Assembly (NCBI GenBank): GCA_963827655.1
Contig: CAWHCF010000027.1
Location: 1-46,007, forward strand
Source: an uncultured Acidobacteriota bacterium
GTDB lineage: Bacteria > Acidobacteriota > UBA6911
Length of the DNA stretch: 46,007 bases
Reading direction: 5' to 3'
Made by a program: the position numbers and the translations under genes. Shown one piece after another: positions 18,708 through 23,851 of the stretch (positions are counted from its first letter, which is position 1; every line of letters starts with the position of its first letter). The notes below the pieces were generated by a model. That model did no database searches. It was not told where the DNA came from and saw only the letters and a list, made by a program, of their open reading frames with translations.

Positions 18708-19354
18708 GGGTTCCTGGGCATCTTTGGGTCCCGCTTCTTTGATGATCGAATCAAGTCAAGCAAAGGGAGGTTCATCTCGCGGCACATGCTATAAAAGGCG
18801 GCGATGGGAAAGCCGACAATATTGAAGTAGCACCCCTCGATACGATCCACAAACATCGCCGCGTATCCCTGAATGCCGTAAGCGCCTGCCTTGTCGCGGT
18901 AATCCGCAGTTGTGAGATACCAATCGATCTCTGATCCCGACAGTCGCCGGAAGTGCACCCGTGAGGTCACGCTGCGCGATCTCGCGCGTTCAGTCTCGCA
19001 GTCCATCAAGGAGATGCCCGAGACCACCTCATGCCACCGTCCTTCAAGGGCGCGCAACATGCTCCGCGCTTCTTCTTTTCCAGAGGGTTTGCCGAAACGT
19101 TCGCCGCCGGCCACGACGATGGTATCGGCGCCTATGATCAATCCGCGGTGGTGTCTTTTGCTGACATCTTGGACCTTGCTTCTAGCGACCCGCGCAGCGT
19201 AGCGCGCGGGCGTCTCTCCCGGAACCTGTCCGGGTTCGGGTATCCGGCTGGGATCTACCACAAAATCCAATCCTAGAGCCTCTAAGATCTCCTTGCGCCG
19301 CGGGGAAGCTGAGGCCAGGATCAGTTTGTGAACGGAGGCTTTGGATGTTGCCAT
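18704..19354 (-). CDS. maf: Maf-family nucleoside triphosphate pyrophosphatase
   Basis: LILASASPRRKEIL, IGADTIV, GKP, DKAGAYGIQG, IEGCYFNIVGFP. Confidence 0.95.
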   Translation of the reverse strand: MATSKASVHKLILASASPRRKEILEALGLDFVVDPSRIPEPGQVPGETPARYAARVARSKVQDVSKRHHRGLIIGADTIVVAGGERFGKPSGKEEARSMLRALEGRWHEVVSGISLMDCETERARSRSVTSRVHFRRLSGSEIDWYLTTADYRDKAGAYGIQGYAAMFVDRIEGCYFNIVGFPIAAFYSMCREMNLPLLDLIRSSKKRDPKMPRNP

Positions 19355-19475
19355 CGCTGCGTGTCTTCGCTATCTTAACATCAGAATCGATGGCAGCGCA
19401 CCGTTGGAGTGCGGTAGCTTGCTCCGAACCTTATGCGCATCTTGTATTGGCCCAGAACGAATGGTTACGCCCTCG

Positions 19476-19681
19476 CGCCCTGAAAGGGCGAAGGAAATTA
19501 GCCGGGGGCAAGCGGAGCGCTGCCCCCGGTCAAACAAAAGCAAAGAGATGCGCCCCGGAGGGGCGCTGGACGCTGCCCCTCAATGTTCCTGCGCCCCTTC
19601 AGGGCGCATAGGCTATACACCCCAAACCCCGGGCTACGCTTCGCTTGCCCCGGGGCTAATTTCCGTCGCCCCTCCGGGGCG
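19476..19681. repeat. Nested-palindrome REP/MITE-like element of the type seen near IS200-like/RAYT transposases
   Basis: CGCCCTGAAAGGGCG, GCGCCCCGGAGGGGCGC, GCGCCCCTTCAGGGCGC, CGCCCCTCCGGGGCG; outer arms GGAAATTAGCC../..GGCTAATTTCC. Confidence 0.75.
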
Positions 19682-19780
19682 AAATCCTGTATCAGCCTGT
19701 GCCGCTCACGCGAAATCTACAAACTCCAGGCGGCTGACGTGTCAAAGCGCCACGGCTTCTCGCTTGTTCCTGAGTCAACG

Positions 19781-20803
19781 ATGAAGATAATGCGTCTACT
19801 TTCCGTTCTGCTGCTGTTGATAGCGCTCGTCATGATGGAGGCGGGGCTTGGCGGGCAGTTGCCCCCGGATGGCTCTTTTCCTGAGAAACTGCTAGGGGAG
19901 ATGTCCCCATTCCACGTGGCTCTATTCCTTCACGGGGACATCCGCGGCAACTTTGGACCTTGTGGGTGACCGATGAATCCCATGGGTGGATTCGCCCGTC
20001 GGATGAGCTTCTGGAACGCCTTTAAGCGCAAATTCCCGGAACGGTTCTCATTAAGGCTGGACGGAGGTTCCATTTTCGACTCCGCGTCGGCCCAGGCGCC
20101 CCTGGTCAATCGCTGGATACTCGAGGGCACTCTGCGCTCGAACCTCGACGCTCTGAACCTGAGTGCCTGGGATCTTCCCGTCTGGCGGCTGATGGGAGAC
20201 CTGACCGCGGCGGGCCAGCTGTCGAAAGAACTCTTGAACATCGCGCTCGTTTCCGCAAACGTGAAGGCGAAGGTGCCCAATTTTCCGCAAGTTCAGCGCT
20301 ACGTGATCAAGGAATTCAGCTTCGATTCAAACGCGGGCAGCAAAGGTTTTCGGATTGGAATAACCGGATTGCTCTTCGATCCTCAAGAAAGGATTTCGCG
20401 CCAGGACTTTGAAATCCTCGATTATCAGCGGGCCGTCCGCGAGGTGATGGCTGAAATCACCAACAAAACCGACTACCGCGTCATCCTTACCGACATGGAT
20501 ATTGGGAAAGCCATCAGCCTTGCGATCCAGGTGCCGGATATAAACCTGATCCTGGTGGCTCACAATTATGAAGGGGCCTCTGAGCCTCAGCGAGTGGGCG
20601 ATACTCTCATTGTGACTTCGGTCAACGAGGGTCGAGCGATCAGCGAAGTTCGTCTGGGTCTATCAAAGGATTCCGGCAAGGTCGACATCCAAAGCCGTTT
20701 CGTGCAGCTGGACAAAACCGTCCCCGACGACCCTGTCCTGGGAGAACTGGTACGCAAGGCTCAAGCCGAGCTGGACGACTTCAATAAAAGGAGTAGGCAG
20801 TAG
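19781..20803 (+). CDS. Exported UshA-like (5'-nucleotidase-fold) selenoprotein, UGA at 19967-19969 read as Sec (340 aa)
   Basis: Signal peptide, then LHGDIRGNFGPCG-TGA-PMNPMGGFARR in one frame; later LDGGS, VSANV, IGITGL motifs; hairpin directly after the UGA. Confidence 0.82.
19970..20002 (+). promoter_or_regulatory. Candidate bacterial SECIS hairpin
   Basis: CCGA-T-GAATCC-CATGGGT-GGATTC-G-CCCG-TCGG immediately 3' of the in-frame TGA; G-rich apical loop. Confidence 0.55.
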
Positions 20804-20853
20804 GCAGTGAAGAACGCGACATCTTCTGACGCATTGGCCTCGGCGCCTGCCTT

Positions 20854-21333: not shown

Positions 21334-23851
21334 ATGCTTTTGAGTACTGCTGTTCGACGGACTGCGTATGTTCTACTCGCGGGAGTGCTGCTGGCGGGAT
21401 TCGCCAGCGAGGCCCGTGGCCAGAAGCGCGTTTTCGCCAGGGTGGAGCCCGAGGCGCTGTCGTTCGACGTGAATATCGATGGAAGCGATAATATCGCTCC
21501 CAACATCATCATTTCGGCAGATGGCAAGCGCGCTTTTGTGGCGTATACGGGTTCCGGCGTCATTCTGGTGTTTTCGAGTGAGAACGGCGAGATTCTTAAC
21601 CGCATTCAGACCGGTGGCAAACCTTACTACATCACGCCTCTCGCGGACCAGCGCTCACTTGGCCGCCGTCTCCGTCCAGGATAACCGGGTATTTGTTATC
21701 GACCCGGATTCCAGCAGCGTGACCGCCTTCTCGTTTACCGGCGCGCAGTTTGGTTTCGGCAGCGTTCCAAGTCTGTCTCCCGACGGCACTGTGGGCTACA
21801 TTTCCTCGACCGGCACCGGAGAGTTGATCAAGTTCGCAATTTCGGATGGCCGGGAACTCGGCCGCCTCGGGGGGTTTCAGGGCCCCGCGCAGATCACGGT
21901 ATCGAAAGACGGCGGCCTCCTCATGGTGGTAGACACCATCAAGGAAGAACTCGCTTTCGTCGACTCCTCTTCGCTGACCAGGCGCAATGCACTGTCGGGG
22001 ACACCATTTGTTACAAACTTTACCCTCTTTAACAAGGCAGTCCTCTCTCCGGACGGCAGCACGGCGATCATCGGCAGTCGAGATAACAACGGTCTCCTGG
22101 GTGCGGACACCATCTTCTATTTCAGCGTGTCCACAGGCGAGGTCATTGCAACGGCAACCATGGGATCGGAACCGGGCTATGCGTCTCTGACTCCGGATGG
22201 CCAGTACTGGGTCATACTGAATCAATTCAGCGTAAGCGTCATCAGCACACAGGATTTCAATGTCCGGCGCGACATGCAGTCGGCTCTGGGAGAGCTGCTG
22301 GCCTCAGCCAATCTGATTTTTTCGCCGGATTCGCGCTACGTTTTCTATTCATCTTCTGCCGCGGACCTGGTATTCCAGCACGATCTCTGGACCACGTCGG
22401 TTGTGGCGCAAATTCCATTGGGGGATGACCCCAACTACGCGCTGGACCAGACGTCGACGCTTGCCATGACGCCTGACGGGAAAACCATCGCCGCCGTGAA
22501 TTTCATCAGCAACAATATTGAGTTGCTGGCCGATGCGTGGGTAATGGATTCGGCCAAATTTGTCAACTCCGCGGACAATTTCACCGGACTGAGTCTGATA
22601 AATCTGGCGCCGGGGCCTACTACTTTCCGGATCACGGCTCTGGACAACTTCGGCCAGCTCATAACTGGAGAAGGCGTGTCGAATCCGTTCGACTGGGAAC
22701 TCCCGGCTGATACTCAGATTTCATTGTCGATGGCTGAGCTATTCGGGTTTGACAGCACGGAACGTCTTGGCTGGATTACGATCCGCTCCGATCGACCGGA
22801 GGTTGCTGGATACGTTTCAACCGGCGACACCAACCTCACTCGGCGCGACGGAGTTCCCCTGTTCCGGAAGCCGTTGTTTGAATGGATCATGCCTGAAATC
22901 GTGAAAAGAGAGGGAGCGGCGACGGAACTCAACATTGTCAATCCGTACTACAACCAGACTTCCTACACGACCGATCGAGTGCTCAAAGATGGCACGGTCG
23001 AAGAGGTGCAAAGCAACAACACTGCGTTTCCGACCAACCGGCACGCCCGGACCTTCGGCGATACTTTTGTGAGTCCTGACGATGTCACCGATGGGTACCT
23101 GAGGATGAGTGCGGGACAGGGCCTGTTGTTCACCGAGTTCTTCGGAGGAGAAGGTTCCGTCGGTGCTCTTAACGGCATCGATATGGAGCGGTATGGCGGA
23201 GTTACGAAGATCTACTCACCTCAGTTCGCGATCGTCCCAGGGTTTAAAACCATGCTGAACGTCATTAACGCCAACGAGGAGGACGCGGAGGTCACCATCA
23301 CGCTTCACCGTGAGGACGGCACGGTGATTGGCGAACCTTACAAAAGGACCCTGGTGAAGGGGGAACAGATCAAAGACGATCTGGCCGAAATCTTCAAGGA
23401 ACAGCCGGACGTAAGGGATGTGACCGGCTGGCTCGAGGTCGAAAGCACCCGTGATCGCATCGTGGGGACCATCACTTTCACCAATGAGGAGCAGGTTTTC
23501 CTGACCAGTTTTGAGCTTAGCGCCGTGGCGGAGCCCCGCCTTCTCTTCCCGATGCTGGCTCACGACGAAACCTACCAGACCGGGGTCGCTCTGCTCAATC
23601 CGAATCCCGAGCCGGCGGCGGTGACAGTTGAAGTCTGGGGCCCGGGAGGAACCAGAGATCGTTCAACCAGCCTCGTGTTACCCGCCAATGGCAGTACGTC
23701 ATTCTACCTGGACAACTACTTTCCGACTCTGGAGCCTCGCCTGGTGGGCAACCTGCGGGTGCGTTCGGACCAGCCGCTACACGGGTTTGCGCTCATCAAC
23801 GACCGCAACTTGACGCTTATGGCGGCGGTACCGGCAATTGCTCTACGGTAG
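21334..23851 (+). pseudogene. Exported YVTN/YncE-like beta-propeller protein with repeated C-terminal beta-sandwich modules; +1 frameshift near 21660 (possible sequencing error)
   Basis: Signal peptide in ORF 21334; SADGKRAFVA, SPDG/TPDG blades; TGLSLIN/TELNIVN/TMLNVIN/TGVALLN repeats in ORF 21479..23851. Confidence 0.75.

Follow-up and report, generated by a model that had tools for sequence, protein, structure and literature searches.

A 46,007-nucleotide stretch of DNA from an uncultured Acidobacteriota bacterium (contig CAWHCF010000027.1 of assembly GCA_963827655.1; hereafter the window) carries at positions 19781-20803 what is very probably a single gene for an exported selenoprotein, in which an in-frame UGA is read as selenocysteine (Sec). 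The original prediction, made from the letters of the window alone, was that TGT GGG TGA CCG ATG joins two open reading frames (ORFs) here, and this is borne out by the coordinates, the ORF list and homology across the TGA. TGT (19961-63), GGG (19964-66), TGA (19967-69), CCG (19970-72) and ATG (19973-75) all lie in one frame, as do the listed ORFs 19583..19969 and 19973..20803, and between the ATG at 19781 and the TAG at 20801-20803 the TGA at 19967-19969 is the sole interruption. Translated with TGA as U, the sequence approaching the codon reads HGDIRGNFGPCGU and the junction itself GPCGUPMNPMGGFARR, in the wider context …HGDIRGNFGPCG-U-PMNPMGGFARR…. Because homology crosses the stop and 17 loci carry a TGA in the same column, the two ORFs are not a chance juxtaposition. 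In short, the gene has gone unannotated and belongs to, or is a short relative of, an already described kind of selenoprotein.

The N terminus of the read-through protein is basic and then hydrophobic (MKIMRLLSVLLLLIALVMMEAGLGG), and a comparable N terminus is found in most aligned homologues (as cut, L038, L043 and L051 are without it); in the AlphaFold model this segment is a low-confidence N-terminal helix. From these features the product is probably exported by means of an N-terminal signal peptide. In L059, an independent metagenome contig, the 95%-identical gene begins with an ATG at the same place as that at 19781. By eye we found no strong Shine-Dalgarno sequence upstream of the internal ATG at 19973, where there is only GTGGGTGA, and a promoter and terminator scan returned nothing usable for the selenoprotein gene.

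To place the UGA among its homologues, we counted the codon at residue 63 in 40 loci from different genomes or metagenome contigs, translated with TGA as U and aligned, finding TGA in 17, TGT or TGC in 23 and any other codon in none, in agreement with the expectation that homologues would show Cys or UGA at this position. Two loci were dropped from this set (L061, the same record as L030, and L062), and the codon of L066 was re-read by eye owing to frame changes further downstream in that locus. The 17 TGA loci include the window's own, the near-identical L059, which is a single locus from a metagenome scan with a single protein as query, and L034 from an unpublished genome (G049), without which 16 of 39 loci have TGA. 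GPCG-TGA is found in each of the seven distinct close relatives, which are 55-95% identical. A six-frame search of the phylum gave a match in 127 of 401 Acidobacteriota genomes, with exactly one in-frame TGA in 50 of the 87 best matches. Homology flanks the TGA, and three full-length homologues can be aligned over the whole protein, signal peptide and C terminus included. Across the 42 homologue rows that span the motif, Cys61 is kept in 40, Gly62 in 41 and Cys or Sec at residue 63 in 40.

Among 79 strong homologues from a search of 5.8 billion predicted proteins, three are full length and 76, of 247-301 aa, consist of the post-TGA part only (72-81% of the query). When 1.84 billion cluster representatives were searched with a profile, 1,452 clusters at 50% identity reached E <= 1e-30; in 14 of the best 150 representatives, residue 1-3 aligns to profile positions 64-69, that is, just past the Sec site, and a motif scan of the same best 150 found CxC in 84 and CGW in 3. 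One of the three full-length homologues, P0049, reads PCDC at the place of PCGU. Separately, seven predicted proteins of 1009-2823 aa (P0084, P0087, P0093, P0131, P0135, P0200 and P0226) each contain two to four separate matches to the domain. We also noted a 65%-identical relative, the dropped locus L062 (QHZE01000210.1, around 1500-1540), which is without the HGD…GPCGU stretch, an estimated 30 codons or so; its signal peptide and FPDKLLEG join MGGFARR directly and out of frame, and the gap is either a natural deletion or pseudogene or a mis-assembly.

Downstream of the UGA, the mRNA is predicted to fold into a hairpin of the selenocysteine insertion sequence (SECIS) type at 19977-20004, with a 4-bp lower stem (AUCC/GGAU), a C/C mismatch, a 7-bp upper stem (AUGGGUG/CGCCCGU) and a GAUU loop. 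This hairpin is both the centroid and the minimum-energy structure of 19967-20011, at -15.4 kcal/mol in context and -14.3 kcal/mol as a 28-nt hairpin alone, and with its 4-nt G-first loop, 7-bp upper stem and UGA-to-loop distance of 19 nt it lies within all four constraints for bacterial SECIS (bSECIS) elements given in the legend to Fig. 2 of PMC13188914. The original prediction had instead drawn a GAATCC/GGATTC hairpin at once after the UGA, with a loop somewhat closer to that codon than the canonical spacing. Those arms exist (19975-19980 and 19988-19993) and can pair over 6 bp, but the conserved hairpin is the one at 19977-20004 with the GAUU loop, and at 19 nt its spacing presents no problem. 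We rejected the GAATCC/GGATTC stem as the SECIS element: it excludes the 19977-20004 fold, is weaker (-6.4 versus -15.4 kcal/mol), keeps 3-6 of its 6 pairs in relatives and falls outside three of the four bSECIS constraints (11-nt spacing, a CAUGGGU loop and the -6.4 kcal/mol).

In all nine examined loci that use the helix, 6-7 of the 7 upper-stem pairs are kept, with changes of U.G to C-G and of A-U to C-G. Comparing the loci at a larger scale, with the T of the residue-63 codon numbered 0, we found hairpins at two registers within one peptide-coding stretch. Helix A (+15..+32) has a G(A/G/U)UU loop and is coded by the M/L-G-G-F-A-R codons; helix B (+22..+42) has a GGC or GGA loop, is coded by the L-A-R-R-(A/V)-(S/G/N) codons and shows compensatory changes in its arms, for example GGCCC/GGGCC, GGCUC/GAGCC, GGCAC/GUGUC and AGCCC/GGGCU. 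Every one of the 17 TGA loci has, at helix A or B, a contiguous stem of 6 bp or more with a 3-4-nt G-first loop, and the stems of the 23 Cys loci never exceed 4 bp at these positions. This count is to be read with two reservations that weigh on our interpretation: the registers were picked post hoc from the folds of TGA loci, and the loci are phylogenetically related, so that the statistics overstate their independence.

We set beside this count a position-free control, in which the 48 nt past the codon were folded and compared with 300 synonymous-codon permutations per gene. Mean z values were -1.31 among the TGA loci (16 of them) and -0.23 among the 23 Cys loci, a difference with p = 0.0007 in a one-sided Mann-Whitney test. 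Raw minimum free energies of the 52 nt past the codon did not separate the groups (TGA -17.7 versus Cys -18.4 kcal/mol), the Cys loci in this comparison being richer in G+C than the TGA loci; separation is seen only in the synonymous-permutation control and the fixed-register stem count. No SECIS family turned up when 19300-20200 was scanned against Rfam by E-value; the matches were sub-threshold noise.

The TGA is also present in independently obtained DNA. In spanning Logan contigs from runs X1 and X3 of two separate studies, 91-99% identical to the window sequence, no difference is listed at 19967-19969; three contigs from those two studies cover the TGA, and L059 is identical over the 60 nt around it. 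Reads showing TGC or TGT had been named at the outset as evidence that would speak against a selenoprotein, and the contigs from both studies keep TGA. A divergent X3 contig carries T19987C, which turns an upper-stem U.G into C-G, and A19990T, which makes a GUUU loop from GAUU. Two contigs from RNA libraries (X15 and X16) match parts of 20017-20847; as the UGA is not covered and DNA carry-over is possible, they are silent on read-through.

The genome as a whole encodes machinery for Sec insertion, with one reservation. We identified selB (380 bits, an open frame of 768 aa), selD (384 bits) and tRNA-Sec (74 bits; called SeC with anticodon tca by ARAGORN), all intact. The fourth component, selA, lies at G000:C23:243631-244996 (L072:7632-8997, minus strand) in four pieces in frames 3, 2, 3 and 1, which jointly span residues 1-470 of the SelA proteins of relatives at 40-73% identity with no segment missing; the best piece scores 398 bits, and there is no internal stop in the three pieces that were matched in the selA search. 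The implication drawn earlier, that Sec machinery is found elsewhere in this genome, thus holds for three components outright and for selA in content but not in frame. Matches to selA at E <= 1e-30 occur in every one of the 20 other genomes sampled from the same family; 19 exceed the family cut-off and 18 extend over the full profile length, those of G405 and G409 being partial. TGA otherwise behaves as an ordinary stop, since it ends 858 of the 1606 open frames of at least 500 codons, and on the same grounds we ruled out an alternative genetic code in which TGA means Trp or Gly.

The assembly (8.18 Mb in 53 contigs) has one frame change each in rpoB and rpoC (G000:C8:77700-86155) and in secA (C8:37089-39423), all three on contig C8; gyrA (C10) and two uvrA genes (C23 and C52) are intact. 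As rpoB, rpoC and secA are essential yet frame-changed, the assembly must contain indel errors. A further case lies inside the window, where a 1-nt insertion at 21658 is apparent against the 97%-identical independent contig L059, in which the gene is one ORF; the insertion cuts a 790-aa DUF5719-like exported protein (21334-23851) from its start ORF 21334..21684, which carries the signal peptide. Given these four breaks, a broken frame in this assembly is no proof of lost function, and the breaks in selA may be either a local cluster of errors or a very recent pseudogene.

Several observations weigh against a functional selenoprotein gene and have to be set beside this evidence. Taken alone, the hairpin of the window lends modest support (synonymous-permutation z -1.48, p = 0.086), and an 81-nt stretch folds no better than dinucleotide shuffles (z +0.20). 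Two of the full-length homologues have Asp (P0020, PTGD) or Gly (P0025, PGGG) at the Sec position, and three predicted proteins (P0109, P0212 and P0228) read CGW, with Trp there. Trp or other residues in this column had been named in advance as a sign that the prediction was wrong; Cys or Sec stands in 40 of 42 rows, the Asp and Gly sequences being the two exceptions, and both have lost the partner Cys too. For the CGW proteins the nearest relatives are TGA loci in all three cases (P0109 is 77% identical to L048), so the Trp is probably a TGA translated by the source pipeline under a table in which TGA encodes Trp. The neighbouring genes are housekeeping genes and give no hint of function. The weightiest point concerns selA: it has three frame changes within 1.4 kb, above the average rate, and about 13 kb of its neighbours (gatB, rnr, purH, gpsA, coaX and a TRAM methyltransferase) are intact. 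If these breaks are real, Sec-tRNA cannot be made and the gene product is at present truncated. The locus would then be a selenoprotein gene by descent that no longer works here, its UGA a stop after 62 residues, awaiting loss or a change of TGA to TGY. The enrichment is apparent in that rpoB, rpoC, secA, gyrA and the two uvrA genes together show only three frame changes over about 18 kb. Yet nothing of selA is missing from its four pieces; selB, selD and tRNA-Sec are intact; the gene and its paralogue both stay open on either side of the TGA, and the gene keeps its hairpin; and the same assembly breaks essential genes and a gene inside the window by indel error. We consider decay of the locus unlikely.

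Two further explanations would do away with read-through altogether. The TGA could be an ordinary stop separating a 62-residue exported peptide from a cytoplasmic protein of 276 residues begun at the ATG at 19973 or 19982. Gene callers annotate 76 of the 79 strong homologues in just this way, and an ATG does stand close behind the TGA, but the first strand and CG motif of a single, confidently folded domain come from the upstream piece, homologues with Cys run on as one protein, 23 of 40 loci have Cys in the TGA column, the hairpin is present only alongside TGA, and many TGA loci have no ATG at that place (L064, for instance, reads PSGG), leaving two separate products very improbable. Still harder to sustain is a sequencing or assembly error for TGC or TGT, or a recent nonsense mutation: the assembly does have errors, but those seen are indels and not substitutions, the same TGA and context recur in the three contigs from the two other studies and in L059, and the seven close relatives all carry GPCG-TGA. 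We regard such an error as a negligible prospect, and a selenoprotein gene read through its UGA as much the best account of the locus. The features assigned to it are collected in Table 1.

Table 1. Features of the read-through gene, in window coordinates
Feature	Position	Strand	Details and basis
Whole coding sequence of the probable selenoprotein	19781..20803	+	340 residues plus TAG stop; Sec = residue 63
Probable Sec-type signal peptide	19781..19855	+	MKIMR + LLSVLLLLIALVMM + EAGLGG; about residues 1-21 to 1-25; sequence reading
Cys61-Gly62-Sec63 motif, TGT GGG TGA	19961..19969	+	Conserved among 42 homologue rows
Probable UGA selenocysteine codon	19967..19969	+	TGA/TGY column in homologues; independent contigs
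Post-UGA fragment, a separate 276-aa ORF according to gene callers	19973..20803	+	ORF list
Predicted SECIS-type hairpin	19977..20004	+	Lower stem 19977-19980/20001-20004; upper stem 19982-19988/19993-19999; loop GAUU 19989-19992

To characterize the protein itself, we searched the read-through translation against families and structures. No Pfam family matched at E <= 1, and no metallophosphatase or 5'-nucleotidase model did. The best NCBIfam match was the "UshA-like (seleno)protein" family NF041198 (UshA_like_PCGU), with E 6e-28 over positions 24-271 of its 519-position profile and a score of 97.7 bits (cut-off 275), followed by TIGR04486 (SoxB) at 39 bits (cut-off 550) and NF049981 (UshA-like family 2, UshA_like_Sel_2) at 21.6 bits (cut-off 140). 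An AlphaFold model built on a 68-row alignment has a mean predicted local distance difference test score (pLDDT) of 92.4 and a predicted template-modelling score (pTM) of 0.88; in it one confidently folded domain spans the UGA position, and the protein ends after this N-domain and one long helix. Foldseek against the PDB matched the N-terminal domains of 5'-nucleotidases, CD73, UshA and SoxB (E ~1e-19 to 1e-17). Over 42-68 family rows, conservation is lacking in the columns aligned to the DxH His (position 55, with R13/Q8/H6/K4 among its residues), the GD Asp (position 97, with S35/N12/G6/Y6 among its residues) and the GNHE Asn-His pair (positions 129-130, variable). As the phosphoesterase metal ligands are not conserved, the label "UshA-like" given to the protein in the original prediction describes its fold only. 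From alignment combined with secondary structure, the Cys-Gly-Sec triad appears to sit in the loop that joins strand 46-51 to helix 71-84, at the position of phosphoesterase motif I.

The same genome encodes a longer paralogue, P0083 (G000:C38:165610-167061, or L071:1611-3062), of 483 aa with CGU at residue 77. It reads …GSLDPCG-U-TEPAMGGMARR… and has a C-terminal domain with four CxxCH motifs that matches Pfam Cytochrome_C554 (PF13435) at 62 bits. Profile positions 351-519 of NF041198 align to the tetrahaem cytochrome c domain of P0083 and of P0081, indicating that the catalogued family is the UshA-like domain fused to a tetrahaem cytochrome c; these long acidobacterial forms also score just under the cut-off of 275, at 238.5 bits (P0083) and 257 bits (P0081). 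By sequence, the window protein is the UshA-like domain alone, a short haem-less relative and not a certified member of NF041198. Membership of the UshA-like family, as originally proposed, is thus upheld by the best match and the PCGU…GG.ARR motif but not by the score, which is below the cut-off, or by the domain content, the cytochrome c domain being absent. Among 42 loci, including the window's own, four CxxCH motifs occur in six, three in one and none in 35, and short and long forms are each found both with Sec and with Cys.

We propose the following mechanism. At the UGA at 19967-19969 the ribosome would insert selenocysteine instead of terminating, SelB with Sec-tRNA(Sec) being recruited by the mRNA hairpin at 19977-20004 inside the N-P-M-G-G-F-A-R-R-M codons; bacterial Sec insertion, as outlined in PMC9312934 and PMC13188914, involves SelB-bound Sec-tRNA(Sec) docking on a hairpin at the UGA. 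The product would cross the inner membrane by its signal peptide, and the mature protein would be an N-terminal metallophosphatase-type domain of the 5'-nucleotidase/UshA/SoxB fold whose di-metal ligands have decayed. On a scaffold no longer binding two metals, Cys61 and Sec63 could form a redox or chalcogen-transfer centre, working by selenenylsulfide cycling, which might exchange electrons with c-type cytochromes, either in cis (long paralogue) or in trans (window protein). Such a role partnered by c-type cytochromes, suggested by the conservation and joint loss of Cys61 and Sec63, the tetrahaem fusion in the paralogue and a distant kinship with SoxB, is put forward tentatively, the main alternative being that Cys and Sec ligate metal instead.

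Around the gene lie an asparaginase, xseA, a polyprenyl synthetase, an FtsJ-like methyltransferase, nadK, maf, dciA, the DUF5719-like 790-aa protein, pnp, dnaG and rpoD. Among loci L030-L070, all close relatives share the arrangement nadK - maf(-) - UshA-like gene - dciA - large exported protein. With flanks of only 1.5 kb, maf adjoins the gene in 15 of 41 related loci and dciA in 16 of 41, and parts of the maf/dciA order are kept in distant Sec and Cys forms, short and long. The intergenic region between maf and the selenoprotein gene (19427-19752) is dense in G+C-rich palindromes and does not align with L059, which is 97% identical elsewhere but has some 405 unrelated bases in its place; sub-threshold Rfam matches to Acido-Lenti-1 at 19648-19681 (+, 27 bits) and 19476-19515 (-, 24 bits; gathering score 37) lie within it, and the region may be a mobile repeat element.

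The haem-less CG(U/C) proteins might be more than truncated UshA-like proteins and form an acidobacterial enzyme family in their own right, periplasmic and passed on vertically, with a fixed place between maf and dciA. In such a family a Cys-Gly-Sec centre for redox chemistry or chalcogen transfer, using separate cytochromes, would stand in place of the di-metal site, and SECIS elements would have been built at two registers in one conserved peptide-coding stretch as lineages switched between Cys and Sec. Taken jointly, this picture is somewhat doubtful.

An UshA-like CxU selenoprotein family of the kind invoked in the original prediction does exist, and as it has been in print since 2008, the selenoprotein call is correct but unsurprising. 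The 2008 Global Ocean Sampling (GOS) study lists it under COG0737 with 76 Sec and 92 Cys sequences and, in the part consulted, gives it no conserved Cys-based redox motif (PMC2398784). The family is tabulated in reviews of 2022 and 2026 under NF041198, together with a "family 2", NF049981, which is listed as "GenBank annotated" (PMC9312934, PMC13188914). A literature search on the family brought up these three accounts and no others. Literature on selenoproteins of soil Acidobacteria, judged by titles and abstract openings, does not treat the UshA-like family. In the portions of these prior accounts that we consulted, the haem-less form below both NCBIfam cut-offs, the maf-dciA site and the two SECIS registers are not visible.

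It is for annotation that the finding matters most. Of the strong public homologues, 76 of 79 are deposited with truncated N termini, unnamed, as "hypothetical" or as 2',3'-cyclic-nucleotide phosphodiesterase of the 5'-nucleotidase family; these entries are missing the signal peptide and what is likely the active-site residue, and the short form scores below the cut-off of every NCBIfam model. The 1,452 clusters found by profile search suggest that mis-annotation is hiding an abundant selenoprotein of soil bacteria. For a family listed as "function unknown" since 2008, the tetrahaem fusion, the lost metal ligands and the alternation of Cys and Sec at one conserved locus offer handles, and the contrast between hairpin-bearing TGA loci and hairpin-free Cys loci provides a natural data set on the gain and loss of SECIS elements inside constrained coding sequence.

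The protein can be set beside several known systems. With the 5'-nucleotidases, UshA and CD73 (PDB 3ivd, 2z1a, 4h2i and 1ush) it shares the N-terminal fold (Foldseek E 5e-19 to 1e-15, TM-score ~0.62-0.70 on the query), with profile-to-sequence matches at E 1e-20; unlike them, it is without the C-terminal substrate- and nucleotide-binding domain, and the di-metal ligands are not conserved. A venom 5'-nucleotidase aligns two Cys in the same loop as the Cys-Gly-Sec of the window protein, and in CD73 the two Cys of this loop form a disulfide. SoxB (TIGR04486; PDB 2wdc and 4uwq) is weakly related by sequence (39 bits) and well matched by fold (E 1.8e-17). A periplasmic member of the same superfamily that acts on sulfur compounds, it is a two-domain di-manganese hydrolase without a CxU motif. 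NF049981 is likewise short (a 262-position profile) and of the same superfamily, matching weakly at residues 49-102, but its motif is given as CxxU in the relevant entry of PMC13188914, whereas the window protein has CxU and scores below that cut-off. The closest counterpart is NF041198, from which the window protein differs in falling below the cut-off, in having no CxxCH and in being without the C-terminal multihaem cytochrome domain, and with which, as its best family match, it has in common the P-C-G-U/C motif ahead of GG.ARR, the fold, export and the interchange of Sec and Cys.

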